DNA of 64,000 nt, taken from an uncultured Verrucomicrobiae bacterium. GTDB taxonomy: Bacteria; Verrucomicrobiota; Verrucomicrobiia; Palsa-1439. The stretch spans positions 38,433 to 102,432 of the forward strand of contig CAVQMY010000006.1 in assembly GCA_963713705.1 (NCBI GenBank). The letters run 5' to 3'. The position numbers were made by a program, and so were the translations under genes. The notes below the pieces were generated by a model. It was given only the letters and a program-made list of their open reading frames with translations. It did not search any database and was not told the DNA's origin. Positions 12,969-63,775 of the stretch are shown in pieces (within the stretch, counting starts at the first letter, position 1; every line of letters begins with the position of its first letter).

Positions 12969-14436
12969 CTAGCAGCCCGTTAAAAAAGTCCGAGAAAGTC
13001 TCTTTGATTATTGAACCGTGAGGGCGAGTCCGCTACACGGAGACATGGCACTCGGCAAACGCAAGATTCAGCAATCGGAGTTGTTCATCCCGTCCAATCA
13101 ACTCGTGCAAGGACCCGGCCATCCGTTCTACGGCAAGCTCAATGAAGTTCTGGGTGAGGCGGATTTCGACCCGTTCGTCGAGAAGCTCTGCGCTCCTTAT
13201 TATAAAGACGGTGGCCGCCCCAGCATCCCGCCGGGCGTTTACTTTCGCATGGTGTTGATCGGTTACTTCGAGGGTTTGGACAGTCAACGCGGCATTGCGT
13301 GGCGTTGTGCGGACAGCCTGGCGTTGCGGGCCTTTCTGGGAGTGGCTCCCACCGCGACGACGCCGGTACACGCGTCGATGACCATGATCCGCCAGCGGCT
13401 GGACGAGAAGGTCTTCGACAACGTGTTTCGCTTCGTGCTGGGGCTGCTGGAACAGAAAGGTCTGTTGCGCGGTAAGACGCTGGCCATTGATGCCACGACG
13501 TTGGAAGCCAATGCGGCGATGAAGAGCATCGTGCGCAAGGACACGGCGGAGGACTGGAAGCAGTACTTGCGTCGGCTGGCGCAGGCCGAGGGGATCGAGG
13601 AACCGACCGAAGAAGACCTGCGTCGGCTGGATCGTGGACGTAAGGACAAGAAAGTTTCCAATGACCAGTGGCAAAGCCGCACCGACCCGGACAGTCGGAT
13701 TGCCAAGATGAAGGACGGGCGCACCCACCTGGCGTACAAAGCCGAGCATGCGGTGGACTTGGAGAGCGAGGCGATTGTGGCGCCGCTGGTGACGCACGCC
13801 GATCGCGCCGATGCCGACAGCGCGCCGCTGACGTTGACGCTGGCGCAAGCCAACTTGGTGCTGGCCAGCCCGCAGGCGGACCGCGCCCCTTCGGTGCGGG
13901 AGGCGGTGATGGACAAGGGCTATCACGATAATGGATTGCTCAGCGAGTGCGCGCAGCGAGGGGTACGGACCTACATTCCCGAACGCCGTCAAAAGAGTCG
14001 GTGCTGGACCAACAAGCCGGTGGAACATGAAGTGGCGTTTCGGGCCAATCGACGGCGGGTGCGCAGCGCGAAAGGTCGGCGGTTGAATCGGTGGCGCAGT
14101 GAACGCGCCGAGCGCAGTTTCGCCCACGTGTGCGAGACTGGCGGAGGACGACGGAGTTGGCTGCGCGGTCTGGTCAACGTCCGCAAAGCCTACACTCTGA
14201 AGTGCGCGGCTTATAACTTGGGGCTGCTGCTGCGCAAAGTGTGGGGCCTGAGCAAACCGCGCAGCTTGGCCGATAGGCTGCGGGCGCTTTGGGCCTTGCT
14301 CCATTGGTTGTGGGAGCAACTGGGCGGCTGCTTGACTCAACCGCTTGTCCTTGGGCTGCCCTCCACGCCGAGTGGCGGCTGCGATCCGCGGTTCACGCCA
14401 CTCGCGAAATCAGTGAGTTCTTTAACGGGCTGCTAG
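12969..14436 (+). mobile_element. intact IS5/IS1182-type insertion sequence (~1.47 kb)
   Basis: Perfect 16-bp terminal inverted repeats: CTAGCAGCCCGTTAAA (12969-12984) and TTTAACGGGCTGCTAG (14421-14436). They enclose a single transposase ORF. The outermost CTAG on each side could instead be a 4-bp target duplication. Confidence 0.8.
13045..14436 (+). CDS. IS5/IS1182-family DDE transposase (DUF772 N-domain)
   Basis: GRPSIPPGVYFRMVLIGYFEGLDSQRGIAWRCADSLALRAFLG (DUF772-type block), DKGYHDN, and C-terminal ERSFAHVCETGGGRRSWLRGLVNVRKAYTLKCAAYNLGLL. The stop codon TAG lies inside the right IR. Confidence 0.85.
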   Translation: MALGKRKIQQSELFIPSNQLVQGPGHPFYGKLNEVLGEADFDPFVEKLCAPYYKDGGRPSIPPGVYFRMVLIGYFEGLDSQRGIAWRCADSLALRAFLGVAPTATTPVHASMTMIRQRLDEKVFDNVFRFVLGLLEQKGLLRGKTLAIDATTLEANAAMKSIVRKDTAEDWKQYLRRLAQAEGIEEPTEEDLRRLDRGRKDKKVSNDQWQSRTDPDSRIAKMKDGRTHLAYKAEHAVDLESEAIVAPLVTHADRADADSAPLTLTLAQANLVLASPQADRAPSVREAVMDKGYHDNGLLSECAQRGVRTYIPERRQKSRCWTNKPVEHEVAFRANRRRVRSAKGRRLNRWRSERAERSFAHVCETGGGRRSWLRGLVNVRKAYTLKCAAYNLGLLLRKVWGLSKPRSLADRLRALWALLHWLWEQLGGCLTQPLVLGLPSTPSGGCDPRFTPLAKSVSSLTGC

Positions 14437-21340: not shown

Positions 21341-22225
21341 ATGCGAAATCCGTTCCTATACTCGCCTCATCGTGGCGTTGTGAAAAAACTGACGGCAATT
21401 TTTGTCTCTCTTGTGGCGTTGGCAGGCATGACTTGGGCCAATGACGCCGATTCAGTCCCGTTTGCCGTGGGCGAAAAGCTCACCTATCAGGTTTTTTGGG
21501 GCCCCTTCGTCGTCGGGCGCGCGACCTTGGAGGTGACGGCCATCGAACCGATTGACGGACATAACTGCTATCACCTGGTCGCCAAGGCCAAAACCAGCGG
21601 GCTGATTGACCTGTTGTTCCCGATCGATAGCACGGCCGAAAGCTGGCTGGATTGCGACGGCCTGTTCTCGCGCCGATATCGCGAAGACCGCACCGAAGGT
21701 AACCGCCATCGCAACACGGAGTCGCACTACGATTACGCCGCCAAGGAAACCGTCGTCACCAATTGCCTGAATGGCAAGCAACGCCACGTGTTGCTTGACC
21801 AGCCGGTCCAAGACGTCGTCTCGTCGCTCTACGTCGTGCGCACGAAGAAACTCCTGCTGGATTCCGACCAGATGTTTGCCATCAACGCCGATACCTCGAC
21901 GTACAACGTCACCATCCACCCCGACGAACGCAAATTGATTTGGGTGAAGCCCTTCGGTGACGTTCAGGCCTTGCGCATCGAACCCAGCCCGACCCTCAGC
22001 GTTGTCTCCGCCAACAACGGGCGCATGTGGTTCTGGATCAGTGATGATGCGCGGCACCTGCCCCTGCTCGTCAACTCCGAGCTGAAGTTCGGCAGCGCAA
22101 AACTGGTCCTCTTCAGCGTGGTCACCGGCAAGGCCCCGTCCGCCACGGCGAGTAAGAATGGCGTCGCCTCCAGTTTCCCGTCACCGCTGGCATCGAATGC
22201 CGGCTCACCCGAGCCTACGCGCTGA
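21341..22225 (+). CDS. DUF3108 domain protein
   Basis: Signal-like N-terminus, then FAVGEKLTYQVFWGPFVVGRATLEV ... and C-terminal LKFGSAKLVL, the pattern I associate with DUF3108. Confidence 0.6.
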   Translation: MRNPFLYSPHRGVVKKLTAIFVSLVALAGMTWANDADSVPFAVGEKLTYQVFWGPFVVGRATLEVTAIEPIDGHNCYHLVAKAKTSGLIDLLFPIDSTAESWLDCDGLFSRRYREDRTEGNRHRNTESHYDYAAKETVVTNCLNGKQRHVLLDQPVQDVVSSLYVVRTKKLLLDSDQMFAINADTSTYNVTIHPDERKLIWVKPFGDVQALRIEPSPTLSVVSANNGRMWFWISDDARHLPLLVNSELKFGSAKLVLFSVVTGKAPSATASKNGVASSFPSPLASNAGSPEPTR

Positions 22226-28271: not shown

Positions 28272-30523
28272 CTATGCGAAGTGAACCAGAGTCGGGCTGG
28301 GCTTGGCGGGCGGAGGTGCCGACGCCAGAACGCGAGCAATTGCCTGACGCAACGTCATTTGAGTGATTGGCTTGCGCAGAATCAGGTCAGGCTGATGGGC
28401 CACATCGCCTCCCTCCACGGGCATATCGGCAAACCCCGTGACCATTACCACAGGGGTGTTGGGGGACTTCTGCTTGATGGCCGCCGTCAACTGGTCTCCA
28501 TTCATTCCGGGCATCGCTCGATCCACCACCACAACGTCGTAGCCCCATTGCGCAAACCGTTCCATGGCTTCCCGACCGTCCGCCGCGGTCTCGACAAAAT
28601 GCCCATCGCCCCGCAAATATTCCGCCTCGATGTCGCGGACTTGCGGCTCGTCCTCGGCCAGCAGCACCCGCAGCGGACGCGACGGCGCCGCACTGCTGGT
28701 CACCAGTTCCCCGCCTTCCGCCTGGGGTATTGGAAGTCGAATGACAAAGACCGTTCCTTTGCCGGGTTCGCTTTGAACATCAATCGAACCTCCGTGACGC
28801 TGGACGATTCCGTAGACGATCGCCAGGCCAAGCCCCGTGCCCCGTTCTCCCTTCGTGGTGAAGAACGGTTCGAAACAGCGCTGACGGACTTCCTCGGTCA
28901 TACCTCGTCCCGTGTCCCGCACCTGGACGACCACCGAATCATCTTCGGTGCCAGTCGCCACCGTGAGCGTGCCTCCCTGGGGCATGGCATCGACGGCGTT
29001 GAACAACAGGTTGATCAGCGATTCGCGCAGGTCGGACTCGCTGCCGCGGATCGGGCGGGACATCCTTCAGGTCGGTTTCCACCACCACCGTCGCGCCACT
29101 GGCCATCATCTGATCCTTCCACTTCGGCTGGGTCATCACAACGGCCTGGGCGACGGTTTCATTGATATCGACGGCCTGATAAACGTCTGACTCCTTCCGA
29201 TGGCGATAGAACTCGCGCAGACGATTGACGATGCTCACGGCCTCTTGCGCCGCGGCACTCGTCATCTGGATGTATTTCTTGACCTTCTCCTTGTCGTTGA
29301 GGTTTTCCGGCCAGGCCAGCAACAGTTCATTAAACCCCAAAATCTTCGCCAGAACGTTGTTGAAATCGTGGGCGACACCACTCGCCATCTGCGCCAGAGC
29401 CCGCAACCGCTCCTGTTGCACAACCTGCTTTTGCGTTTCGCGCAATTCCGCCACTGTGCAGGCAAGTTGGCGCGTACTGTCGCGGAGGGATTGCTCGGTC
29501 TGTTTACGGGCGGTGATGTCGTGCACACAGAGCAGGAGCACGGGTCCTTTTGGACAATGGACCAATCTCGCATTTCCTTCACACAGGAATTCGCCGCCGT
29601 CGGGACGCAGGAATTGAAGCTCCCGGCCCACTTCGTTCACCGCCGCCTCGGCCGCCGCCTCGGCCGCCGCCTCGTCCACACGCGCGAGCGCCGGGCAGCA
29701 ACCCGGGACATAGCTCGATAAATGGCCGACCGATCAATTCGCCGGCGCTCTGGCCACTCAATCGGAGCGCGGCCTGGTTGGCCTGCAACACCCCCAGCGT
29801 AAGGGGGTTGAGCAGAAAGATCGCGTCACCGGAAGAATCAAACAGCGTATGGTAGTCGTGCTCGGACAGATTGACGTTGTCCTCGACCACCATGCCCACC
29901 ACGATCAGCAGCGCCAGGATCGCCGAGCCCAGGTACGCGGCGGCCATCAACACTTGCGAGCCGCTCGCCAGCGGGAACCCGATCAAGTGCAGGCCCCACA
30001 GGAGGAACCCGACACCGAGGATGATGCTGCCCCGGGACCGCCGACGCGCGCGGATGTACAGGACACCCGTGTACACCCCCGCTCCCGCCAACAACAGGAA
30101 CACCGGCAGCGTGAGCCACAGCCCGTCTTGAACACGATACGCCGAGAAATAACTCCAGATAATAATCAGCACCGTCGCCAGCGTGAGTTCGCGCTGGTCG
30201 CGCTTCACCTGCGAAAGTTGAAAACTGCCCCAAAACATGAACAGCGCACTGATGCCGATACACGCCCGGGACACCATCAGCAGAAATGGCGTGCGCGGGG
30301 ATTCCTCCAACCCGATCGACGCCGCCAGGTACACCGAGTAAAACATCCACGCGACCGTCCAGAGGCTCAGATGAGTGCGCCGGTTCGAGTAGTTCATGTA
30401 GGTGAACAACCCAATGACCATCCAGACGGTGATCAGGGCCAATACCAACGCCGACCGGATCCATTCGGGAGGAAAAAACAGAACGGACTGATCGAGCAAA
30501 CTCAAGTACGGCATGTTCGTCAT
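28272..30523 (-). pseudogene. hybrid sensor histidine kinase (multi-TM sensor-PAS-HisKA-HATPase-REC), two frameshifts as sequenced
   Basis: Three consecutive frames. 30523-29579 holds about 7 TM segments plus the PAS start. 29679-28939 holds the PAS end, HDITARK and the H-box GVAHDFNN. 29063-28272 holds [25 protein letters not shown] and the receiver LLAEDE ... DRAMPGMNG. The breaks fall between ~29680 and ~29735 and at the CCCGCCC run around 29053-29059. Confidence 0.75.
29642..29674. repeat. 12-bp tandem repeat GCCGCCTCGGCC x2.75 inside the kinase gene (encodes EAAAEAAAEAA)
   Basis: Read directly. It lies immediately downstream, in gene orientation, of the first frame break. Confidence 0.8.
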
Positions 30524-33162
30524 GACTCGGTCCTTGTGCTACCAACGGGCCCTGACTCCCGGCCATCCAGCACTTCACGCACTCTCTGTGCCAAAACCTC
30601 GGGGGTAAATGGCTTTTCCAGGAAGGCGATTCGATCCTCGGATATTCCGTGTCGAATCATGGCATCCGCCGTGTAACCCGACGTGAACAGGACCTTGGTG
30701 TCCGGACGGGCGGTTCCAAACCAATCCGCCAACTGTTTGCCATCGAGCTGTGGCATCACGATGTCGGTGAAGAGCAAATCGATCTTGTCCATTGCGTTCT
30801 GCTCGGCCACGCGAATCCCCTCCTTGCCGTTGCTCGCCTCCATCACGCGATAACCCAGCTCGCGCAGGATCCCGACCGTCAGGTTACGTACCTCCGGCTC
30901 GTCCTCCGCCACCAGGATGGTTTCCTTGCCGGTCGCCCATTCCAGAACTTTTGGCCGCTCGGGCTGTTGGTCCGCGTCGGCGGCGACCCGCGGCAGGTAA
31001 ATCTTGAACGTGGTGCCCTTGCCCAACTCGGTAAACACATCGATGTGGCCCCCGCTTTGTTTGACAATGCCGTAGCAGGTCGCCAGGCCGAGCCCCGTAC
31101 CCTTCCCCTGTGGTTTGGTCGTGAAAAACGGTTCGAAGAGGTGCGCCTTCACGTCCTCGGTCATTCCCGATCCCGTGTCGGTGACGGACAGCATAACGTA
31201 TTCGCCGGGTCCCACGTCGCCATGTTGGCGGGTGTAGTCTTCGTGAAGCGTTGCCCGCGCCACCTCGATGATGAGCTTGCCGCCGTTGGCCATGGCGTCG
31301 CGCGCGTTCACCGCGAGGTTCATGATCACCTGCTCGATCTGGGCGGGATCGGCCCGAACGTTCCCCACGGCCGCGCCGCGAATCGTGTGCAGCCCGATGT
31401 CTTCGCCGATCAACCGACGCAGCATTTTCTCGATGTCGGTCACGACATTGCTCAGGTTGAGTATCCGTGGTTGCAGCGCCTGTTTGCGACTGAACGCCAG
31501 CAACTGCCTCGTCAAACCGCTCGCTCGTTCGGCCGATTTGCGAATTTGCTCCGCCAGGCGAAACCGCGGGTCCTCGGGGGGCAGCTTGCGCAGCAACAGC
31601 TCGGTGTACCCGTTGATCGCTGTCAGGATATTGTTAAAATCATGGGCCACACCGCCGGCCAGACGTCCCACGGCTTCGACCTTCTGGGCCTGCAGGAACT
31701 GCTCCTGCAACGTTTTTTGCTCGGTGATGTCCTCTTTGATCGCGATGAAATGCGCCACCTGTCCCTGCTCGTCCGCCACGGGTGCAATGGTCATCCGCGC
31801 CGTGTACTCGGTCTCGTCTTTGCGGCGGCTGACCAGTTCCCCCTGCCAGACTTTGCCGGAGAGAACCGTTTGCCAGAGCTCGTCGTAAACCGCCGGCTCG
31901 TGGCTGCCCGCCTTCAGCGCTGACCACACTTCCCCATACACCTCGGCGAATGCGTACCCCGTTAACCTGGTGAAGGCGGGGTTGACCCATTCGATCGTCC
32001 CGTTGCGGTCGGTGAGCACGATGGCGTTCGCCGCGGAATCCAGTGCCGCCGCCTGCAACCGCAAACGATCCGCCGCCAGCTTCTGCTGCGTCACGCTTTC
32101 GCGCAATTCCGTCTGCGAGCGCTGCAACGCGTCCAGCATCTTGTTCAGAGCACCAGCCAAACCTGCCAGTTCGTCCCGTCCGACAGCCGCCACGCGCGCG
32201 GTGACATCACTTCGACTCCCAATTCGATTCACATCCGCAACCAGCCTGGCCAGCCGCGCCAGAAGCACCCGTTCCAGCAACACGGCCATGGAAGCCCCGA
32301 AACACAATCCGATGATCAGCAGCGATGTCACCAACAACTGGATGGTGCCCAGTCCCTGCGCGAAGATGTCGCGCGGCTTTTCCACGCGCAGCACCACAGC
32401 TGGTTTCCCGAAAATGTCGTCACACACCGTGTAGCCCCCGACCCAGTCGCCCACCAGAGGATGCACGTACACCCGATCGACATCGCGTCCCTGGGCCAGG
32501 GCGTCCCGGAAATCCGCCGTCAATTTTGGATCATCCGCTCGGCGCACCATCACCATCAAATGCGCTGCGTCCGTGAATCGCTTCATCGCCGCCAGGTCCA
32601 GATACCGGCCGACAATGAGCGTGCCGCGGACCGGCCCGCCGTGCTGGCCCGTCACAATCGGCCTCGAAACCACTAGCGTGACGCCCTCGGGCAACGACAC
32701 CAGACCCGAGTGGACACTGTTGACGCTGGGGTGGCTCAGGAGCAGGCTCTTGCCATTCAACAACCGCAAAAAACTATCCGGCACGGGTAGCGCCTTGGCC
32801 GCCCGCAAATCAAACCCGTTGCTCCACACCACCTGCCCATCGCGATTCAAGAGAACAATAAAATTCAACCGCAGGTCGGTGAACGTCGAGTTACCGAGGT
32901 TGGCGCGGATATAGCTCGGGTTGTGATCCTGAATAAACTGGCAGGTGTCATCCCGCGCCGCCCACTCCTCGGCTTTGTCGCTGAGGTCCGCCAACTCGTT
33001 GACCATGGCGCTCTTGGACCACTTCACGTCGCGGACGACATCGCGCCGCTCGAGTCGGGAGAAATCAGTGAGCAGGATCGACGAGGACACCTTGTACAAC
33101 CCCAGAATGAGCGCGACGAGGGTGACGCCGATGATCAGGAATATCTTGCGACGCAACGTCAT
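30520..33162 (-). CDS. hybrid sensor histidine kinase (CHASE4-like sensor-HAMP-PAS-HisKA-HATPase-REC)
   Basis: The N-terminal extracytoplasmic region ([25 protein letters not shown] ...) resembles CHASE4. H-box [35 protein letters not shown]. Receiver [10 protein letters not shown] ... [14 protein letters not shown] overlap with the next kinase gene. Confidence 0.85.
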
Positions 33163-33342
33163 CGCAATCTTTCCCGTCGGTCGAAATTCGACACGATAAT
33201 TTGCATCTTGGCGCTCACCAAACGTCCATCCATGCCATCAAACAGACAAGGCCAGATGTCATAAAATGCAATAACCGTGCCACCAGGGGCTTGGCCCGTG
33301 CCTTGACTTGCCGCCCCGCATTGGCGATAGTCCGCCCTTGCC

Positions 33343-42920: not shown

Positions 42921-44386
42921 CTACGGCGTGATGGCGAACCGATAGAACCCTTGCGGCCCGGTGGCCCCGCCGAAGTTGGTCAATGTCAGCAAAGCCCCGA
43001 TGCTGTTAGTGACGGAGACGCTGGGGACGTTCGACCAAATGCCGGAATCTGGATCAGTCGTGAACTGCAATTGATACGTCTCGTAGGCTACGGACGGGAT
43101 GCCGATGGAGATATTGGTGCCCGCAATCTGGACTCCTGAAATCTGATTGGCCGGAGGGTTGAGGGGGACGATCAATTCAAACACGCTGCCACACCCGCTA
43201 TTGCAAGGGCCGCTCCCACCGTACACCGTTGTTCCGTAGAAATTCCCGTCGATGCCCTGCACTAGCCCAGACGGGATTGTCAAGGAACAGAAGGAGTATA
43301 AGGAAGTGAAACTACCGCTCGGACTGATCCGAAACACGGTCCCGCCACCGCAGCTGCCGCCGGCAGTTCCCCCGTAGAAGTTACCGTCACTGCCTTGTAC
43401 CAGCATCGAAGACGAATCCCACCCCGGGGATGTTATGTAGTCGAATGAATAGAGATTCGTAACACTCCCGCTCGGACTGACCCTGATTACGCTGCCGCAA
43501 TCGCAATCTCTATTCGCACCGGATCGGGTCGTCCCATAGAAATTGCCGTCGCTGCCTCTTACCAGTGCAAATACTGGTTCAGTTCCTTCGGAAGCGCTGA
43601 ATCCGTGGAGATTGGTGTAACTTCCGCTCGGACTGATGCGGAATACTGTTCCGTAGGTCGCCCCAGCCCCACCTTGGCTGGTATTTCCGTAGAAATTACC
43701 GTCGCTGCCCTGCACAAAGCGGCTTCCGGAAATTCCCCATCGCCGGAGTAGCTACCAAAGGAGTACAGAGTCGTGTAGGTGCCGCTGGCACTGATCCGAA
43801 ACACAGTGCCGCAGCCGCCGCAATTGTAGTGCACCCCGCCCTCGTAGGTCGTCCCATAGAAATTCCCATCGCTGCCCTGCACGACCCCGGCATATGGTTT
43901 TTCCCCATCAGTGGGGGAGCTGCCAAAGGAGTACAGAGTCGTGTAGGTGCCGCTGGGAGTGATCCGAAACACGGTGCCCCAGCCGCCGTTCGTCCCGCCG
44001 CCCGTGGTCGTCCCATAGAAATTCCCATCGCTGCCCTGCACGAGCCCGGCATATGGCTTTACCCCATCGGTGGGGGTACTGCCAAAGGAGTAAAGAGTCG
44101 TCTCGGTGCCGCTGGCACTGACCCGAAAGACGGTCCCGCATCCGTTAGCACAATTGGTGTTTGTTCCCCCATATTGGGTCGCCCCGTAGAAGTTCCCATC
44201 CGTGCCCTGTATCAGTCCAATGTTTGGACCGCTGCCATCGTTGGGGATGCTCCCGAAGAAGTACAGATTTGTCTCCGTTTGTGCATTCGCATTCAATGCC
44301 CAGCCAGCCAAAGCTGACACGACACTCGCAACGAGAATGCGGAATATTCTCGCCTGCGCCAACCCGACCCGAATCGGTTTGTTCAT
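42921..44386 (-). pseudogene. secreted GloVer (Gloeo_Verruco, TIGR03803-type) tandem-repeat protein, one frameshift as sequenced
   Basis: Signal peptide MNKPIRVGLAQARIFRILVASVVSALAGWALNANA, then at least 8 units of ...QGSDGNFYGTT..GG..G.GTVFRISPSGTYTTLYSF... The frame switches near 43713-43718 (ORF 43559-44551 to ORF 42921-43715). Confidence 0.7.
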
Positions 44387-44689
44387 ACCCGACGCATCTT
44401 TCTCCGAGATGTTGCCAAACACGCTTGCCAGCAAGTACAAGGCTAGCATTCCGGCCCTGCCAAGTCGAGCGAAATCCAGCTGCAATCCACCCGCCTTGCC
44501 AGCCGATTCCCGATGCTGAGACTGCCCGCAAGGTCGTTGCAATTTCCGCAAACAGGCTTATGTTGCAGTGGAGAGTCGAGGGCGAGTTGTAGGCAAGTTG
44601 AAGATGTGGGAAAGAGTAATCGCGGTTTGGGACTCGACTCTCCATCGTTTCTCCCCAGCGCAGTCTCGGTCAATTCGCCCCGGAGATTC

Positions 44690-44893
44690 CTAAATCGGCT
44701 TTCGGGGATTTTCGAAGGTGCGCCGATCCGGATGGCGACAAAACACACTGGAACCAACACGCACCGCATGCCCGCAACCGTCGGGGTTGCCCATCAGGCA
44801 ATACGAAATGTCCAGGGATAGTCCCCGATACCTCGTCCGGCATTTCGCCGGATCGGAAGAACGCCCCGGCTGGCTGACGATGTCGCCGGTCAT
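44690..44893 (-). CDS. small Cys-rich protein, family member a (unknown function)
   Basis: 67 aa. Shares C-x13-C-x7-C-x11-C-x-HPDRR-x-FE with three other ORFs in this window. Confidence 0.55.
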   Translation of the reverse strand: MTGDIVSQPGRSSDPAKCRTRYRGLSLDISYCLMGNPDGCGHAVRVGSSVFCRHPDRRTFENPRKPI

Positions 44894-44936
44894 GATCGCA
44901 AAAAAAGCATCAATCTTGCCAGCCGCAGTCTCCCGT

Positions 44937-44991
44937 CAGTTCCTGACAATAAATGGAGCCCACACGCTTGGGCCAACGGCAGATGCAGGAC
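44937..44991. repeat. ~55-bp direct repeat, copy 2 (duplicated xdhC 5' region)
   Basis: Retains a pseudo-start GTG GGC TCC ATT TAT .. CAG GAA CTG that mirrors the xdhC sequence GTG GAT CCC ATT TAT CAG GAA CTG. Confidence 0.65.
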
Positions 44992-45000
44992 ATGTCATGG

Positions 45001-45504
45001 TCATGGAGCACATTCGGACACATCGTACTCATAGCGCGAGACAAAGTAGGGGCCGACCTTGCGATCGCTGTGGTGGATAAAGCCAAACCGCTCGTAGATC
45101 GCGCGCAGACGGGGACGGGATGCCTCGCAGTCAAGGCGAACGTAGCGTCGGCCCAATGTGCGGGCGCGCTCGACGGCCCACTGCAGAAGGGCTGTCGAAA
45201 CGTCGCCTCCGGCAAATTTTCTCCGGACCGCCAGCCGATGGATATAGGTGGAATTATGCCGGTACACATCGGGCCAGAACTGCGGGTCTTCGAGTTGGAA
45301 CCTCACGGTACCGGCGGCTTCGCCGTCGCATTCGGCGAGAAAAAACACACCGGCGGTTACGTCCGACGCGATGCGTTCGGGCTCGAGTTCATCATCGCGC
45401 CACATGGGTTTGCCGGTGTCGTTGAGCCACTGAGCGGCTTCGAGCAGAATGCTGGACACGACTTCAAGGTCACAGGGCGCTGCCTGACGAATCGATATGT
45501 CCAT
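45001..45504 (-). CDS. GNAT-family N-acetyltransferase
   Basis: IHRLAVRRKFAGGDVSTALLQWAVERARTLGRRYVRLDC ... LRAIYERFGF (acetyl-CoA binding motif A region); 167 aa. Confidence 0.85.
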   Translation of the reverse strand: MDISIRQAAPCDLEVVSSILLEAAQWLNDTGKPMWRDDELEPERIASDVTAGVFFLAECDGEAAGTVRFQLEDPQFWPDVYRHNSTYIHRLAVRRKFAGGDVSTALLQWAVERARTLGRRYVRLDCEASRPRLRAIYERFGFIHHSDRKVGPYFVSRYEYDVSECAP

Positions 45505-45595
45505 GGCTGGTCTGAAGGCTAATGGCTGGAAGGGCGGGAAGCAAGTCCGACCGGCACAGGCGGATTGGGCGATGGAGCGGGATGGCGGTCAAAGA

Positions 45596-46060
45596 CTACA
45601 GCAGTGACACCATGGTGGGGTTGTCATCTGGAAGCTGCGCCGATCCGGCTGATGGTGAGGCGGGGGATGCGGATGGCGTACGGATAGCGTCCTGCACCTT
45701 CTGAGCCAGGTCAGCCAGCTTGAAAGGTTTTTTCAGGTAGCCCCGCAGCCCTCTCTGAAACATCCTGTCGGCCACGGGTTCGTCAAAGCCCGTCAGCAAA
45801 ACGACGCGCACATCTGGATTGAGGCGTTGGAGGTCATCGAAGACGAAATCGCCAGACAATGGGGGTAGCAAGAAGTCCAGTAGCACCGCGTCAATCTCTC
45901 GCCATCTCTCCTCGTAAATCCAGATGGCTGACTGTGGGGTGGCGGCGGTCAACACTCTGTAGCCTCGGGATTCCAACTCCGCCGTGAGGAACCCCAGAAG
46001 GACCTCGTCATCGTCGATGGCGAGAACGCACGGTTTTGGGCTGCTATTACGTGGAGCCAT
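45596..46060 (-). CDS. single-domain response regulator
   Basis: CVLAIDDDEVLLGFL ... VLLDFLLPPLSGDF ... VVLLTGF ... YLKKPF. The start is uncertain (the ORF track gives 46123). Confidence 0.75.
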   Translation of the reverse strand: MAPRNSSPKPCVLAIDDDEVLLGFLTAELESRGYRVLTAATPQSAIWIYEERWREIDAVLLDFLLPPLSGDFVFDDLQRLNPDVRVVLLTGFDEPVADRMFQRGLRGYLKKPFKLADLAQKVQDAIRTPSASPASPSAGSAQLPDDNPTMVSLL

Positions 46061-46155
46061 GCTTCGACAAGGAGCACACGGCTTGCCAGCCGCCGTTCCC
46101 CCTGAAGCCCGCCCCCAATTCACCCGCCAAGATTATCCCCCCAGCGGATAAAACC

Positions 46156-46977
46156 TCACGGTTTCTCTTCGTGGAACGGCTTCTTCTGATCGTAGAGACT
46201 GAGCCGCTGGCGGGCTTCCGCCGAGGTATCCTTCGACAAGTTGGACTCCAGGCATTTCGTCTCCCATTTGGCGGCATTGTCGAAGTCCCCAGCCTCGGCG
46301 CAGGCCGCCGCCAGCGTATCGAACATGGAAGCGTCCTTCCATTCCGACAGTTCACAGGCCTTCGTCGCATACTCGACCGCCTTCATCCCATTCCGAACGT
46401 TCGCATCGGGGCAAACGGCCAATAGCCAGGCGAGCCTGTTGTAGACCTCCACATAATCCGGCTTGAGACGGATGGCTTCGATGCAATCGGCGATGGCGTT
46501 GCCATAATCGCCTTTGTGGCCGTAGCAGTTTGCCCGGTTGTAATAAGCCACCGCTTGATCCGGATTGAGGCGGATGGCCTCATTGCAATCGGCGATGGCC
46601 CTGTCCCAGTCGTCTTTGTGGGTGTAGTCGTTGGCTCGGTTGCAATAGGCCCTGGCTTGGCGCGGATCGAGACGAATAGCCTGGTTCTCGTCGGCGATGG
46701 CCCGGTCATAGTCGCCTTTACCGACGTAGGCAACTCCCCGGTTGATGTAGGCCTCGGCATAATCGGGCTTGAGGCGGACGGCTTCGCTAAACTCAGCGAT
46801 GGCGAGGTCATAATTCCGGCCTTCAACCGCATCCACCCCACTCTCAAAGGCTCTCTCTGACCGGAAGTTCCCACACCCCTGGCCTGCCAACAGCAAGAGG
46901 GAGATCCCGAGCCATGACAGTCTTGCGAGGGGCCGGCGGGCTGGCGGACTCGAAGTCAGGCCGGGTTCCGGGGCCAT
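46156..46977 (-). CDS. TPR-repeat lipoprotein, paralog 1
   Basis: Lipobox-like [10 protein letters not shown], at least 5 TPR units ([29 protein letters not shown]...), and a conserved tail [12 protein letters not shown] ... [13 protein letters not shown] ... [18 protein letters not shown]. The start is set by alignment to paralogs 2 and 3. Confidence 0.8.
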
Positions 46978-47056
46978 GGTTGCTTCCGGCATGAAGCGGT
47001 TCTCTGGATGCCAATACGAAGTGGCTGTGGGCTTCATTCCCGCCCCAATGGGGAAG

Positions 47057-47257
47057 TCAAGGCAACGCTGCCTTCTCGAAGCGACGTCGTTCTGGATGGC
47101 AACAAAAGACGCAAGACGCAAAGCGGATGGCATACTCGCAACCGTTGGCGTTGTCCATGAGGCAGGACGAGAACTCAAGAGTTCGCCCCAGATACATAGC
47201 CCGACATATCTCCGGGTCCGGAAGATGTCGTTGATTGCTGAGAGTGTCATCGGTCAT
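47057..47257 (-). CDS. small Cys-rich protein, family member b
   Basis: 66 aa: [66 protein letters not shown]. Its ATG overlaps the stop of member c (ATGA). Confidence 0.6.
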
Positions 47258-47526
47258 GGCGGGGTTGTCTTCTCGAAGCTCCGTCGATCCGGATGGTAGC
47301 AATAAACGCCAGAACCAGAACGGAAACGTGCCGCATGCCCGCAACCGCTGGGGTCTTTCACCAGGCATTTCGAAAGACCGAGAGAGGGCCCCAGATATCT
47401 GGTGCGGCATATTTCCGGATCTGGTAGACTCCGTTGGTTGCCAACCGTGTCTTCGGTCTTGCTTCCAAAAAGAGCCGCCAAAGCCTGCCAGCCGATCTTC
47501 CACCGGGTTTGTTCGACATTTGCCAT
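47254..47526 (-). CDS. small Cys-rich protein, family member c (start uncertain)
   Basis: ...[66 protein letters not shown]. There is no ATG at the family-typical position; the ORF-track ATG adds about 24 aa. Confidence 0.5.
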   Translation of the reverse strand: MANVEQTRWKIGWQALAALFGSKTEDTVGNQRSLPDPEICRTRYLGPSLGLSKCLVKDPSGCGHAARFRSGSGVYCYHPDRRSFEKTTPP

Positions 47527-51162: not shown

Positions 51163-51231
51163 TTGCCGCGATCAGGGTTGCGCGACGGATTTTGTGGTCG
51201 CGGCGGTGACCGCCCGCTACAATTTAAACTT

Positions 51232-52992
51232 GTGAACCGATCCGATTGGATTCGAACAGGCGCTGTCCTGATGCTGTTCGCTGTCGTCTTCGAATTTCTC
51301 ACCATCCATAGTTATCGGCGTCTTTCGGCGACCATCGATGAGCCGCAGCATCTCACCGATGGTTATGTCGCGTGGAAACTGCAGGATTACCGCGTCGACC
51401 CGGATCACCCGCCGCTGCTGCGGATGTGGGCCGCGCTGCCGCTGTTGGCAACGCCCGGGATCAAGCTCGACACCCACAGCCGTTACTGGCTCCCGTTCGA
51501 TGAGTGGCGCTTCTGCCATCAATTCCTTTATCAGGACAACGACGCGGATCGCTTGCTCTATCCCGCTCGCTTCATGATCAGTCTGCTCGGCGTGCTTCTC
51601 GGCATTCTGGTATTTTGTTGGGCCAGGGAGTTGGTCGGTTTCTGGCCCGCCGCAATCGTGTTGGGATTGTTTTGTGCGGAACCGAATCTGGTGGCGCATT
51701 CCGGTTTGGTCACGACCGATTTGGGCGCGACCTGCTTCATCTTCGGCTCGGTGTACTTCGCGTGGCGGATCGCGCGCGATTTCAGCATCGGCAACGCCAT
51801 CGGACTCACCGTTTTTTTCGTGCTCGCCCAACTCAGCAAGTACTCCGCGCTCCTGCTCGTGCCCATTCTTCTGGGCTTGTGGCTCGTGCGGGCGCTCACA
51901 CGAACGCCATGGCCGTGCCATCTTCGTCGCGCCACACTTCTTACGTCGCGAGCGCGCAAAACCATGCTGGTTCTGGTTTCCATCGGCTGTCTGGTGCTGG
52001 TTTCTTACGTGGCGCTTTGGGCGATCTACTCGTTCCGCTATGCGCCGACCGCGGCGGGAATCGAGCAGGCGCAGTTCACTGCCGATGTCGAGGCGCAGCA
52101 TCGCCTGCCCCGGCTCACCAGCTTGATGCAATGGGTCGATGCGCATCACCTGTTGCCCAACGCCTGCGCGCAGGGATTCCTCTCCATGACCGCGAAGGCC
52201 CAGTTGCGGCCGGCGTATTTGTTCGGGGAATTCAGCGAGCAGGGGTGGTGGTACTACTTTCCCGTGGCGTTTCTCATCAAGACTCCCATCGCGCTGCTGT
52301 TCCTGTCGTTCATCGGGTTGATACTCTGGACTGTCGACGGGACGAAGAGCTGGCTGAACGGTTTGTTCGTCGTGGGACCACCGGCGGCTTATGTTATCGT
52401 GGCGATGGCCGGTCACTTGGATATCGGTCTGCGACACATCCTGATCGTCTATCCGTTTCTATTGCTGCTGGCCGGGCGGACCATCGCGGCTCTGTTCCCA
52501 TCATGCGTGTCGGGAGCAAAACGTCGGTGGAGAGGCATCGCTCTTGTATGCCTGTGTCTGGCCCAGGTCACGGAATTCGCTGCCGTCTATCCGGACTGCC
52601 TCGCGTTTTTCAATGTCAGCGTTGGTGGGCCACAGCACGGTGCCGACTATCTGGTCGATTCCAATCTCGATTGGGGCCAGGGCCTGAAACTGCTCAAGCA
52701 GTGGATGACGGAGCATCACGTCACCCGCATCAATTTGAGTTACTTCGGCTACGCCGACCCGGCCTACTACGGAATCGAGTACAACCCGTTGCCCGGTTCG
52801 CCATTCTTTGACTACGGTCGGATTGGCAAACCGCAGGTGCCCGGCTACATCGCGGTCAGTGCCACCAACCTGCGCGGCCTGTACCTGAGCGATTTCGCCA
52901 GGGGCCTGTACGCAAACCTCCAGAAACGGCAACCCGTCGCCGTCCTCGGCCACTGCATCTACATATATTGGGTCGACCAGCCGTGGTGGTAG
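51232..52992 (+). CDS. GT-C fold glycosyltransferase, family 39/ArnT-PMT-like, tandem paralog 1
   Basis: About 586 aa with more than 10 TM segments. First-loop acidic motif ATIDEPQHL, shared blocks HPPLLRMWAALPLL, EPNLVAH, VTTDLG, GWWYYFPVAFLIKTP, DSNLDWGQGLKLLKQWM, YIYWVDQPWW. GTG start chosen by alignment to the paralogs. Confidence 0.7.
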   Translation: MNRSDWIRTGAVLMLFAVVFEFLTIHSYRRLSATIDEPQHLTDGYVAWKLQDYRVDPDHPPLLRMWAALPLLATPGIKLDTHSRYWLPFDEWRFCHQFLYQDNDADRLLYPARFMISLLGVLLGILVFCWARELVGFWPAAIVLGLFCAEPNLVAHSGLVTTDLGATCFIFGSVYFAWRIARDFSIGNAIGLTVFFVLAQLSKYSALLLVPILLGLWLVRALTRTPWPCHLRRATLLTSRARKTMLVLVSIGCLVLVSYVALWAIYSFRYAPTAAGIEQAQFTADVEAQHRLPRLTSLMQWVDAHHLLPNACAQGFLSMTAKAQLRPAYLFGEFSEQGWWYYFPVAFLIKTPIALLFLSFIGLILWTVDGTKSWLNGLFVVGPPAAYVIVAMAGHLDIGLRHILIVYPFLLLLAGRTIAALFPSCVSGAKRRWRGIALVCLCLAQVTEFAAVYPDCLAFFNVSVGGPQHGADYLVDSNLDWGQGLKLLKQWMTEHHVTRINLSYFGYADPAYYGIEYNPLPGSPFFDYGRIGKPQVPGYIAVSATNLRGLYLSDFARGLYANLQKRQPVAVLGHCIYIYWVDQPWW

Positions 52993-60462: not shown

Positions 60463-60595
60463 GTCGTAGTTGACTCGACGAAACGGTCTACTCGACCCTC
60501 GACGGCAATGCAGGACTGACAGGCGGAAATGTAAAGGGGAACAGGCGGCTGTATTTGGCTCGATTTGCCATGGCCGGACTGCTATTTCTCGGAGC

Positions 60596-61318
60596 ATGGC
60601 TACCCAACCCGGCCCTCCTTCGAGTCCGCCAGCTCAGCGCCTCATCGCAAGACTTTCATGCCTGGGAGTTTTCCTCCTGCTGTTGTTGGCAGGCCAAGGG
60701 TGCGGGAACTACCGGGCCGAAAGAGCGTTCGATAGAGGTGCGGGTGCGATGGACAGGCAGGATTACGACCTCGCGATCGCAGAGTTTAGCAAAGCGATCC
60801 GGCTCAAGCCAGGGAATATGTACGCCCGCGTGGACCGGGGATTGGCCTACGCGGACAAGGGAGACTGGGACAAAGCCATTGCTGATTACAATGAAGCCAT
60901 CCGGCTTGTCCCGAACCGTCCTGGGCTCTATCACATTAGAGGCATCGCCTACAGCCACAAAGGCGAGTACGAAAAGGCCGTCGCAGATTACAATGAAGCC
61001 ATCCGCCTCAAACCGGATTATGCCGCCGCCTATGACACCCTGGCACGGCTACTAGCTGTTTGCCCCGACGCCAATGTTCGGAATGGGAAGAAGGCCGTCG
61101 AGTACGCGAAAAAGGTTTGTGATCTGCCAGAATGGCAAAACATGGGAGGATTCGATACCCTAGCCGCGGCCTATGCCGAGGCCGGGGATTTTGACAACGC
61201 CGTCAAATGGGAGAACAAATATCTGGAGTCCAATCCGCCAAAGGATGACTCGGAGAAGGCTCGCCAGCGGCTCAGCCTCTACGAACAGAAAAAGCCGTAC
61301 CACGAAGAGAAACCGTAA
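60596..61318 (+). CDS. TPR-repeat lipoprotein, paralog 2
   Basis: [41 protein letters not shown] units, and the tail [19 protein letters not shown] ... [20 protein letters not shown] ... [18 protein letters not shown]. Confidence 0.8.
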
Positions 61319-62040
61319 TGGCCTCCACACCCCGCCCACCTTCGCGTCCGCCAGCCCGGCGGCCTCTCGCAAGACTGTCATGGCTGGGGATTTTCCTCCT
61401 GTTGCTGTTGGCGGGCCAAGGGTGCGGGAACAAGCAGTCAGACAGAGCCTTTGCAAGAGGCATGGACGCGGGTTGTCGGCATGATTATGACCTCGCCATT
61501 GCTGAGTTCACGGAAGCGATCCGACTCAATCCGAAGAATTCCCCGGCGTATTACCAAAGAGCCAACGCCTACAGACACAAAAACAACTGGGACAGGGCCA
61601 TTGCCGATTACTCAGAAGCGATCCGACTCAAGCCGGATTATGTCAAAGTGTACAATAACCGGGGTATTGCCTACGTCCAGGAAGGTGATTATGCCAGGGC
61701 CATCGCTGATTTCAACGTGGCCATCCGGCTTGGCCGGACAAACGCCGTGGCCTACAACAACCTTGCCCGACTACTGGCCGTTTGCCCCGACGCTAACTTT
61801 CGGAACGGAAAGAAAGCCGTTGAGATCGCAACGGGGGCCTGTGTCCTGTCAGAATGGAAAACTCCGGATTGGATCGATACGCTGGCGGCGGCCTGCGCCG
61901 AGGCTGGCGACTTTGACAATGCCGTGAAATGGGAGAACAAATACCTGGAGTCCAATCCGTCCAAGGATGACTTGGAGAAAGCCCGTCAACGGCTCAGTCT
62001 CTACGAACAGAAGAAGCCGTACCATGAAGAGAAACCGTGA
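61318..62040 (+). CDS. TPR-repeat lipoprotein, paralog 3
   Basis: Same architecture. The start overlaps the paralog 2 stop (TAATG). Confidence 0.8.
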
Positions 62041-62267: not shown

Positions 62268-62651
62268 ATGCCCGACATTTTCTTCAAATGCGGGTCATGC
62301 GGGAACCATCTCGTTGCCGATGAAGCAGGGGCTGGGTTGATAATCGACTGTCCCGACTGTAGCACCCCCACCACGATCCCCGAACTATCAACGCTCGTAA
62401 AATGTCCTCGATGTCGGTACCACCTGAAGTTTTCTGCTGAGATCAAGGGAGAGTTGGTGGATTGTCCGGCCTGTCATCTGGAGTTTCGTCTACCGGGACA
62501 ACACTATCCGAAAACCTGTCCCAAATGCGGAGTGGGTTGGGATCCGCCATTGCACCGTTGCCAACACTGTTCCTACAGCCTGGACGCCCCTGTAATACCG
62601 ATGCCCATCCCGACGGACCGCCCTGCGCACGGTCTTCGGGCAACTCCATGA
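62268..62651 (+). CDS. triple zinc-ribbon protein (unknown function)
   Basis: Six CxxC pairs form three ribbons (CGSC..CPDC; CPRC..CPAC; CPKC..CQHC). A GAGGT Shine-Dalgarno-like sequence lies upstream. Confidence 0.6.
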   Translation: MPDIFFKCGSCGNHLVADEAGAGLIIDCPDCSTPTTIPELSTLVKCPRCRYHLKFSAEIKGELVDCPACHLEFRLPGQHYPKTCPKCGVGWDPPLHRCQHCSYSLDAPVIPMPIPTDRPAHGLRATP

Positions 62652-62989
62652 TAGAAAGCCGAAGCCCAGCCCCACCATGAAGAGAAGCCGTGAGGTCTTA
62701 TCCGCAGGCACATGGCCTTGGCGGCGGGGGACCGGGGGGCGTGTTCAGCAAGATCAGGTGACGAGATACGGCGGCTAATCTGACGGGGGAAACGATGGCG
62801 AGTCGAGGACCAAACGGCAATTGCTCTTTCCCTCAGTTCCCACTCGCCTTCAACTCTCGCACGGCAACGCAAGCCTTGATGCAGGAAATGCAAGGGCTGG
62901 CAGGGCGTTGGCCCTAAAGGGGCCGCGAACAATCTTGAGTTTAAGAAGATACTTTGCGAATTCATTAGGGTTACTCTGAAATAAGGCCT

Positions 62990-63415
62990 ATGGTCACGCT
63001 GGTCTCAGCGAGCTGCTTCACTCCGACCAAGACGCAGAGCGACACGGCACAGCAAGGCAGCCAATCGCAACATCGACCGTCGCTACTGCGGGGGGGCATG
63101 GTCATTAAAGCTATCGGCAGGGCAGAGTTTATCCACCGTCTGTCGCTGGACTGCGATCTGGAGCATTTTGTCGGCAAGGAGGTGGAATGGTTTTCCAATA
63201 GGACGGGAAACATTCTTGGCACCATTGCACTGGGAGATAAAGGCAGGGGCTGGAATTACGTCATCTTGAAACGGAATCAACTGGGCAAGTTCCAAGCCTG
63301 TGATGTCGTATGCGACTTTTATAATCACGGGGCGGCAAGGGTTGACTTCATGTTGGCGATGGTGGCGGCTGGGCAGAACCAAAGGGAACAGTTTGCCCGA
63401 ATGGCTTACGATTAA
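62990..63415 (+). CDS. hypothetical protein (start uncertain; alternative ATG at 63098)
   Basis: ORF in a lower-GC stretch, ending 15 nt before Cys-rich member d. I recognise no motif. Confidence 0.35.
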   Translation: MVTLVSASCFTPTKTQSDTAQQGSQSQHRPSLLRGGMVIKAIGRAEFIHRLSLDCDLEHFVGKEVEWFSNRTGNILGTIALGDKGRGWNYVILKRNQLGKFQACDVVCDFYNHGAARVDFMLAMVAAGQNQREQFARMAYD

Positions 63416-63430: not shown

Positions 63431-63775
63431 ATGACCGACAACACCGTCAGCAATCAGAGCCGTCTCCCAGACCCGGAGATATGTCGGACTAAGTATCTGG
63501 GGCAAACTGTCGATTTCTCGGCTTGCTTGGCGGGAAACCCCGACCGTTGCAAGTATGCCGGACCTGTTGGCACTAGCGTCTATTGCCACCATCCTGATCG
63601 GCGGAGCTTCGAGAAGCCCCGAAAACCGATTTCACAGCCATCCCATAGGGTTTTGAAAAAAGCTGGAATGTCTCGTGTAGCCCTGCCACACGGCAGGGAT
63701 GAAAAAGCACAACAAGAACATTCCAGCCGCCGCAAAATTGAACCTCCTGCGGCAGATTTGCAACTTCATTCCTGA
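63431..63775 (+). CDS. small Cys-rich protein, family member d, with aberrant 3' extension
   Basis: [67 protein letters not shown] matches the family through about 63634. The remaining ~47 codons read into the adjacent IS-like sequence. Confidence 0.55.
   Translation: MTDNTVSNQSRLPDPEICRTKYLGQTVDFSACLAGNPDRCKYAGPVGTSVYCHHPDRRSFEKPRKPISQPSHRVLKKAGMSRVALPHGRDEKAQQEHSSRRKIEPPAADLQLHS

Follow-up and report, generated by a model that had tools for sequence, protein, structure and literature searches.

The 64,000-nucleotide stretch of contig CAVQMY010000006.1 (assembly GCA_963713705.1, an uncultured Verrucomicrobiae bacterium; hereafter the window) carries four paralogous genes, members a to d, for cysteine-rich proteins of about 66 aa, which belong to a large, unnamed family so far seen only in Verrucomicrobia. 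The members are almost certainly real genes under purifying selection. From their conserved cysteines and their fusions to, and clustering with, response-regulator receiver (REC) domains we infer, rather than demonstrate, that they serve two-component signalling as metal-binding partners or output modules, a reading to which we give a probability of roughly 40%.

A six-frame search of the window with the pattern C-x13-C-x7-C-x11/13-C-x-HP-[DE]-RR returned exactly four matches, the open reading frames (ORFs) a, b, c and d, at the positions where a preliminary description made from the letters alone had placed them (Table 1). A family profile scored them at E = 7e-36 to 6e-30, far beyond chance; weak profile matches at 51228-51308 and 21961-22041 were inspected and judged to be chance. 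The four proteins share 22 invariant alignment columns, and their pairwise DNA identity is 66-72%, close to the 70% or so estimated earlier by eye. The translational coupling proposed for c and b is a true ATGA overlap, with the stop codon of c at 47256-47254 and the ATG of b at 47257-47255. Member c has AAG at the family start position, where 84% of the family has ATG, GTG or TTG, so it must either start at the upstream ATG 47526, which is preceded by the Shine-Dalgarno-like AGAGGGTGG, or be decaying. In member d the family stop codon is gone, TCA standing in place of the TAG of a, and the frame runs on through a 47-aa C-terminal extension to 63775. By eye, member a resembles the subtype fused to REC-A regulators, having YRG.SL.ISYCL and VR.GSSVFCRHPDRRTFE in common with the family part of the L099 fusion described below. 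None of the four exact protein sequences (0/4) occurs in a collection of 15 billion proteins in which the adjoining gene 62990-63415 is present, and these small genes were probably missed by gene calling in the source annotation.

The coding nature of the members is evident at the codon level. The ratio of nonsynonymous to synonymous substitution rates (dN/dS, Nei-Gojobori) among the four window paralogs was 0.23-0.42, its median over 1926 pairs from related loci (0.1 < dS < 1.5) was 0.46, and close orthologous pairs differed at proportions of 0.06-0.2 of synonymous and 0.00-0.05 of nonsynonymous sites. Among 182 distinct DNA copies from 131 loci, a start codon (ATG, GTG or TTG) stood at family position 1 in 153 and the length was exactly 66 aa in 83, and 50 of the 82 adjacent same-strand pairs overlapped by four bases (ATGA 40, TTGA 9, GTGA 1), the arrangement seen in c and b. 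The earlier view that these are protein genes rather than repeat debris, which was to be judged by dN/dS near 1 and a lack of outside homologs, thus stands, with ratios well below 1 and 125 to 912 homologs depending on the search. The chance that the ORFs belong to a non-coding repeat, or mirror a gene on the opposite strand, is next to nil: none of a to d occurs as a called protein in the large collection and the antisense ORFs are conserved too, but the idea is refuted already by dN/dS, and the fixed length of 66 aa and fixed start position, the end of DNA similarity among a to d at the ORF borders, the hundreds of homologs called as proteins in other assemblies and the in-frame REC fusions all stand against it. 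Degenerate family copies with early stops or truncations were seen at L021 3577-3744, L023 3165-3332, L004 7212-7403 and L045 4104-4172. Together with the lost ATG of c, the lost stop of d and the remnant in the regulator gene described below, they show a rapid birth and death of copies.

Profile searches for homologs, which the preliminary description had called for, revealed a large family. A word-indexed search with the profile of the four found 125 proteins, mostly of 66 aa, all annotated as hypothetical and without a Pfam domain, and exhaustive HMMER comparison with 1.84 billion representatives of 50% identity clusters gave 912 matches at E <= 1e-3, of which 150 reached E <= 1e-10. When one genome was scanned for each GTDB species, 38 loci came to light, all of them in Verrucomicrobiia metagenome-assembled genomes (MAGs) from palsa, SPRUCE peat and Danish soils, and a metagenome scan added 80 further loci. 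The few named distant members likewise come from Verrucomicrobia, every named source being a MAG of that group, and tblastn against plasmid and phage collections gave no match to the family. Single MAGs carry at least 15 copies; in MFD09222.bin.2.60 they lie in L004, L009, L021, L022 and L037, where as many as five share a strand within 12 kb. Some proteins consist of fused family domains only, two in P0001-4 and three in P0130, and P0188 and P0237 are further examples. No known family could be assigned, as had been supposed: members a to d matched 0 families of Pfam and NCBIfam at E <= 10 and nothing in PADLOC or PHROGs at E <= 1, the best profile match among PDB sequences (E = 0.15, ER lectin 1) was spurious, and literature searches for the family returned nothing relevant.

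Conservation was counted over 281 domain instances and is dominated by four cysteines, C18 (275/276), C32 (278/281), C40 (277/280) and C52 (278/279), each at 99% or above, followed by H54 (266/278, 96%), P13 (263/270) and P55 (253/277). They are set in the core pattern LPDP-x2-C-[RK]-T ... C-L-V-x2-P-x2-C-x-[YF]-A-x2-F-G-x3-F-C-x-H-P-[DE]-R, of which the C-terminal half is the best conserved part. The proteins are mildly basic (median isoelectric point 8.2, net charge -4 to +8), and the N-terminus, as read from the sequence, is polar and hydrophilic, with no signal peptide or membrane segment. Structure prediction, which had likewise been called for, was run with AlphaFold2 on 121 sequences and gave a model with a mean predicted local distance difference test score (pLDDT) of 70, rising to 74-83 in the core. 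In this pLDDT-70 model two beta-hairpins are predicted, with strands at residues 20-22, 30-32, 43-46 and 49-52 and cysteines at the strand ends, along with a short helix at 37-39 and a C-terminal helix; pLDDT falls below 50 at residues 1-6, and did so at residues 1-11 in a first model of pLDDT 60. Foldseek found no fold match: with the pLDDT-70 model there were 0 matches at E <= 10 in the PDB, and BFVD returned nothing under E = 5. Four near-invariant cysteines and a histidine in a reducing cytoplasm favour a metal site over disulfides, and we consider a metal site in the family domain likely. Between the metal-binding and the disulfide-knotted fold first put forward, the conservation of the cysteines and histidine therefore makes the former plausible, and the lack of a signal peptide makes the latter unlikely.

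The association with response regulators emerged from a survey in which ORFs were called in all loci and those within 1.5 kb of a member were clustered without any prior idea and dereplicated at 85%. The largest neighbour cluster was of single-domain response regulators (24 distinct sequences), followed by TPR lipoproteins (13), an uncharacterised protein of about 105 aa here termed X (12), GloVer proteins (10), PUR-like proteins (7) and a zinc-ribbon protein (4). Up to 2 kb from a member, 39 REC domains were encoded in 408 kb, a density of 0.96 per 10 kb; at distances of 2-6 kb there were 3 in 420 kb, or 0.07 per 10 kb. Eleven REC genes were no more than 200 nt from a member and shared its strand. 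Among 85 dereplicated members flanked on either side by 1.5 kb or more of sequence, 45 stood in tandem arrays, 21 (25%) had a REC domain and 11 (13%) a TPR gene within 1.5 kb, 6 had X within 400 nt, and 4 (5%) had a GloVer gene within 1.5 kb. The strongest partners are thus cytoplasmic response regulators, which had gone unmentioned in the preliminary description; its claim that all copies sit beside surface or secreted proteins points to a link that is real but weak and secondary (TPR 13% and GloVer 5% vs REC 25%).

Members and REC domains also occur fused, in both orders. REC-A, a linker and a family domain are joined in P0127 (the L072 sequence) and, independently, in the ORF of L099/L100, and in P0155 the order is reversed, the family domain preceding REC in an ORF that is complete on its contig. 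At locus L057 a tandem of three members runs directly into three REC genes (types A, B and C). Distant members keep similar company: P0263 lies directly upstream of a gene for a 410-aa REC protein, P0222 adjoins a 62-aa gene and a group of REC, histidine kinase, REC and REC genes, and P0253 lies upstream of a CheA-CheW-MCP-CheR operon. Taken together, these sequence data make a REC link of the family slightly the more probable option.

The window holds its own instance. A REC-A-type single-domain regulator stands between the c/b pair and a (gene order c, b, TPR, REC-A, GNAT, a), and its start was placed at ATG 46060 because orthologs begin MAP.N. The same subtype is fused to, or adjoins, family members at other loci. 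The last 55 nt or so of the regulator gene are homologous to family 3' ends and to the L072 fusion, including the stop codon, which is followed by TAGTCTTTG; nhmmer with a family DNA profile detected this partial fifth copy at 45622-45653(-) with E = 0.001, and in blastn the remnant matched the terminal part of the L072 fusion gene at 47/63 identity, an alignment that takes in the stop codon and the 3' flank. In the +1 frame the remnant reads HQPDRRSFQMTTPP, a 2-nt insertion having shifted the frame. Most simply, these matches suggest that the window regulator goes back to a fusion of REC-A with a family domain that has since been lost by deletion. Member a, which is like the family domain of the L099 fusion, sits one gene beyond it. 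A likeness between the regulator tail (QLPDD...MVS) and the family N-terminus was set aside as coincidence, the true homology being that of DNA, with the family 3' end and in the other frame.

Members and regulators also have promoter-like elements in common. The σ54-like motif TGGCA-N7-TGCT (GG-N10-GC) has three matches in the window against 0.37 expected, TGGCAAGATTGATGCT upstream of member a, TGGCAAGCCGTGTGCT upstream of the REC-A gene and the near-perfect consensus TGGCACGGTTATTGCA upstream of a hybrid kinase gene (CHASE4-HAMP-PAS-HisKA-HATPase-REC). Over the window and the related loci there are 53 matches; the distance to an ORF's start codon is exactly 12 nt in 19 of them and 13 nt in 4. 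The element precedes family members in L025, L028, L052, L069, L086, L120 and L125 as well as member a of the window, and REC-A, REC-B and REC-C genes in L001, L057, L072, L075, L100, L120 and L025 as well as the window regulator. In sequence these elements match a σ54 promoter, with GG at -24, GC at -12 and 10-nt spacing. Among the products of a signalling cluster at 24-33 kb of the window is a hybrid kinase that has an Hpt domain besides two REC domains. In another Verrucomicrobiia MAG an rpoN gene with an ARRTVAKYR box (L036 541-2010(+)) lies 4 kb upstream of a member.

A second signal, GCTCGACT-TG[CG]CA-N9-TGCT, is 2 nt longer than the σ54-like element and looks σ70-like with an extended -10 in its sequence. 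It stands 12 nt from the ATG of other family members and of TPR lipoprotein genes, and, together with a conserved leader of about 72 nt, before further members and GloVer genes. The distance from the end of its TAnnnN hexamer to the ATG is exactly 7 nt at 21 sites and 69-74 nt at 16. Besides the window it occurs in L006, L009, L015, L017, L022, L029, L030 and others, and a diverged copy, CTTGACTTCCCCATTGGGGCGGGAATGAAG, lies just upstream of ATG 46977, the true start of the TPR gene that follows member b. Should these upstream elements act as promoters, transcription would begin only a few nucleotides from the AUG, giving near-leaderless mRNAs; alternatively, the AGGAGC hexamer that abuts the ATG, and is kept in operon-internal copies too, may be an unusual Shine-Dalgarno sequence. 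The leader common to some family members and GloVer genes contains GGCGAGAGTCGCTCGGGTTCTGATCG and then GGCAACGGCTGAGAGAGGAAC, and in L033 it precedes a GloVer-like N-terminus (MNKPIRAG) that is read in frame into a family domain. A riboswitch was considered for this leader and dropped, there being no Rfam match and no covariation in RNAalifold. The recurrent intergenic element CTCGACTCTCCACTGCAACGTAAGCCTGATTGCGGGAATAGCAAC always has the orientation of the family genes in the fetched loci, in most cases 60-110 nt ahead of the promoter-like motifs; RNAalifold found no consensus structure for it (CTCGACTCTCCACTGCAACGTAAGCC). Beside member a, one copy of a two-copy repeat forms an 11-bp inverted repeat (GGAGAGTCGAG / CTCGACTCTCC) with the element at 44555-44580.

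These observations suggest a working model, whose concrete mechanism is doubtful. The product would be a cytoplasmic mini-protein of 66 aa in which two short beta-hairpins surround one metal site, with C18, C32, C40 and C52 as ligands of zinc or an Fe-S cluster and His54 as a fifth ligand or a functional residue, the first 11 residues or so being predicted to be disordered. The domains may act as pairs or larger assemblies, because the genes are coupled and two- and three-domain fusions exist. They would be partners or outputs of single-domain, CheY-like regulators, to which they are fused or adjacent and with which they are seemingly co-transcribed from the same σ54-type promoters. Phosphorylation of REC might alter its binding to the mini-domain, which would relay the signal to a further target; alternatively, the metal site might sense redox or metal status and modulate the REC protein. 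Metal binding, physical interaction with REC, dependence on σ54 and the direction of signal flow are the inferred parts of this model, whereas the gene family with its purifying selection, its conservation pattern, the fusions, the enrichment of REC among the neighbours and the common upstream motif were observed directly in the sequence data. A bolder version, which we regard as a long shot, sees a new metal-cluster part of the phosphorelay that links redox or metal state to CheY-like regulators. The domain would serve either as the output of response regulators of a class not recognised before or as an adaptor gated by redox or metal, and in the extreme form of this view as a non-helical phosphotransfer module acting through His54; its σ54 promoters would start at or next to the AUG, and at least 15 hetero-pairing paralogs would be at work per genome in peat Verrucomicrobia.

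Several points weigh against the signalling reading. Three quarters (75%) of the dereplicated members have no REC gene within 1.5 kb, and in the window b, c and d either lie at least 0.9 kb from the regulator or have none nearby. These genomes are rich in REC genes, of which the window holds four more, and the enrichment could partly reflect signalling-rich islands; many loci are orthologous, so that the counts are not independent events and are overstated; and the REC profile was made from three sequences of the associated subtypes, which could exaggerate the difference between the near and the distant zone. Further recurrent neighbours (X, TPR lipoproteins, GloVer, PUR-like and RRM proteins) point elsewhere. 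The cysteines form no CxxC knuckles, so the geometry of the metal site is assumed in the model, and the net charge gives no clear signature of nucleic-acid binding. The σ54 assignment is one of consensus match, and no σ54 activator (bacterial enhancer-binding protein) was found in the window or any locus by its GAFTGA signature, or by Pfam in ten large window ORFs.

The preliminary description had offered small regulators, chaperone-like partners or toxin/immunity peptides as possible roles; the REC link points in the direction of the first, and the other two find no support, PADLOC matches, a paired toxin gene and a recurrent maturase all being absent. Even as regulators, the members could act alone, in analogy to the WhiB-like proteins of actinobacteria, an Fe-S or zinc site sensing redox or metal state and the protein acting directly on the transcription machinery or another target, with REC proximity a matter of co-regulation. 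Invariant cysteines and histidine, small size, many paralogs per genome in a single lineage, a peat and bog habitat with redox gradients and the majority of copies without a nearby REC gene all agree with such a role. We nevertheless hold it to be unlikely, since covalent REC fusions in both orders are hard to square with co-regulation alone, the C-x2-C-x5-C motif and G[VI]WGG turn of WhiB-like proteins and any Pfam match are absent, and the predicted fold is β-rich rather than helical.

That the members are accessory partners (chaperone-like, regulatory or immunity-type) of the adjacent exported TPR lipoproteins, PEP-CTERM and GloVer proteins appears improbable. TPR lipoproteins and GloVer proteins are recurrent neighbours (13 and 10 distinct sequences), in the window a TPR lipoprotein gene follows b, a GloVer gene follows a and a PEP-CTERM gene precedes c, and the second upstream signal is common to family, TPR and GloVer genes. 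However, the family has no signal peptide while these proteins are exported, adjacency is rarer than to REC, the three families are so greatly expanded that chance adjacency is likely, no fusion to any of them occurs among the proteins listed, and PADLOC gave no match; the association may come partly from the common promoter type and the expansion of those families. About as little speaks for small structural zinc proteins with a housekeeping or stress role outside signalling, for example associated with RNA or the ribosome. RRM, PUR-like (DUF3276-type) and Usp neighbours in some loci and the mildly basic character would suit such proteins, but at least 15 divergent paralogs per genome with dN/dS of about 0.46 would be unusual for such factors, and REC fusions and restriction to one phylum do not fit. 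Precursors of ribosomally synthesised and post-translationally modified peptides (RiPPs) or small toxins, suggested by small, cysteine-rich, multi-copy, tandem genes with a conserved N-terminal stretch, are very improbable, as no maturase (radical-SAM, lanthipeptide or other), protease or exporter recurs among the neighbour clusters, conservation is highest in the C-terminal part, which is not hypervariable, the protein is predicted to be folded, REC fusions and multi-domain repeats exist, and PADLOC and PHROGs gave no match.

The remaining features of the window are collected in Table 1. X, a recurrent close neighbour in 12 distinct copies, lies 0-60 nt upstream or downstream of members; its 275 homologs are all annotated as hypothetical, it has no significant Pfam or PDB match, and it is a separate uncharacterised family. 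The multi-zinc-ribbon protein, which starts MPDIFFKCGSCGNHL, recurs near members in 4-5 other loci. The window also encodes three paralogous TPR lipoproteins with a common lipobox region, an insertion sequence (IS)-type transposase, and a GloVer-type repeat protein (GSDGNFYGTT repeats) for which there is no Pfam model. The last is divided between two ORFs that overlap in different frames, which suggests that a frameshift or an error of assembly has occurred.

Table 1. Positions of the family members, their neighbours and upstream elements in the window
Feature	Position	Strand	Length	Remarks
Member a	44690-44893	-	67 aa	ORF listing; family profile E = 6e-30
Member b	47057-47257	-	66 aa from its ATG	Second gene of translationally coupled pair; ORF listing and profile
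Member c	47254-47526	-	90 aa (longest ORF)	Family domain 47257-47460; ORF listing and profile
Member d	63431-63775	+	114 aa	Family domain 63431-63631; ORF listing and profile
REC-A-type single-domain response regulator	45596-46060	-		Pfam Response_reg E = 5.5e-18
Family-gene 3'-end remnant	45613-45657	-		Within 3' end of REC-A gene
Gene X	63098-63415	+	~105 aa	Longest ORF from 62990; motifs GKEVEWF and GWNYAILKRD; ends 15 nt before d
σ54-like -24/-12 element TGGCAAGATTGATGCT	44906-44921	-		12 nt upstream of member a ATG
σ54-like element TGGCAAGCCGTGTGCT	46073-46088	-		12 nt upstream of REC-A gene ATG
Near-perfect σ54 consensus TGGCACGGTTATTGCA	33267-33282	-		~100 nt upstream of hybrid kinase gene
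Hybrid kinase gene	30520-33162			
Second signal, copy 1	60558-60586	+		Before TPR ATG 60596
Second signal, copy 2	44442-44470	-		Before GloVer ATG 44386
Leader	44386-44445	-	~72 nt	Window GloVer version loosely similar; also L010 5930-6003, L013 5927-6003, L035 3115-3189, others
Recurrent intergenic element CTCGACTCTCCACTGCAACGTAAGCCTGATTGCGGGAATAGCAAC	44555-44580	-		45 copies in 954 kb of related loci
Two-copy repeat GGGAAAGAGyAATyGCsGTTTGG..CTCGACTC.CCATCGTTTC, copy 1	44608-44667	+		
Two-copy repeat, copy 2	62773-62832	-		
GloVer-type repeat protein, ORF 1	42921-43715	-		
GloVer-type repeat protein, ORF 2	43559-44386	-		
TPR lipoprotein 1	46156-46977	-		
TPR lipoprotein 2	60596-61318	+		
TPR lipoprotein 3	61318-62040	+		
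Multi-zinc-ribbon protein	62268-62651	+		
IS-type transposase	13018-14436	+		DUF772 and DDE_Tnp_1

Verrucomicrobia are abundant in soils and peat and poorly understood, and their signalling proteins are annotated almost wholly by homology to model bacteria. A family of 912 clusters at 50% identity, conserved and multi-copy, is yet found in no curated library and was apparently missed by the gene callers in the window. If its members are indeed partners or outputs of REC proteins, they would offer a handle on the 'orphan' CheY-like proteins of the phylum and a new small metal-binding signalling fold. The fixed-distance σ54-like and σ70-like motifs could aid the prediction of regulons, and possibly of leaderless transcripts, in uncultured Verrucomicrobia.

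Compared with known systems, the family recalls several without belonging to any by sequence. WhiB-like (Wbl) proteins are small, cytoplasmic actinobacterial regulators with four invariant cysteines and many paralogs, which bind σA and are marked by the pattern C-x(14-22)-C-x2-C-x5-C, a helical fold and a G[VI]WGG turn. Both families are small, cytoplasmic, four-cysteine, phylum-restricted and rich in paralogs, a likeness of analogy only: the Verrucomicrobia family has the pattern C-x13-C-x7-C-x11-C-x-H, predicted β-hairpins, apparent REC partners and no Pfam match, its alignments are devoid of the Wbl motif, and all its hosts are Verrucomicrobia. Zinc ribbons and other small four-cysteine zinc fingers resemble it in their size of about 60 aa, two β-hairpins, four cysteines and probably one metal; however, each ligand here stands alone, at cysteine spacings of 13, 7 and 11 followed by C-x-H, and although hairpins are predicted there are no CxxC or CxxH knuckles and no zinc-ribbon Pfam match at E <= 10. 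The C-x-H element and the mixed conservation of cysteine and histidine recall the Fe-S sites of CDGSH (mitoNEET) and Rieske-type proteins, but the CDGSH signature C-x-C-x2-[ST]-x3-P-x-C-D-G-[SAT]-H and the Rieske pair C-x-H ... C-x2-H are absent, just one histidine is conserved, and Pfam gave no match. An Hpt domain, which would be a four-helix bundle exposing a phospho-accepting histidine (HxxKG-like) to solvent, is disfavoured by the predicted β-rich fold, the lack of a Pfam Hpt match and a histidine that is 96% conserved rather than invariant, and a RiPP precursor, for which one expects a conserved leader, a variable core and a maturase or exporter gene close by, is disfavoured by the best conserved half being C-terminal and by neighbour clusters devoid of a recurrent maturase. 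A functional parallel lies with response-regulator output domains and with REC-binding connectors such as PmrD and the Ira anti-adaptors of RssB: the family differs from them in having no sequence or fold relation, both fusion orders, great expansion and mutual pairing, but like them it occurs fused to REC or stand-alone beside single-domain REC genes, and by fusion and adjacency it falls into the class of response-regulator outputs and partners, in a functional and not a homologous sense.

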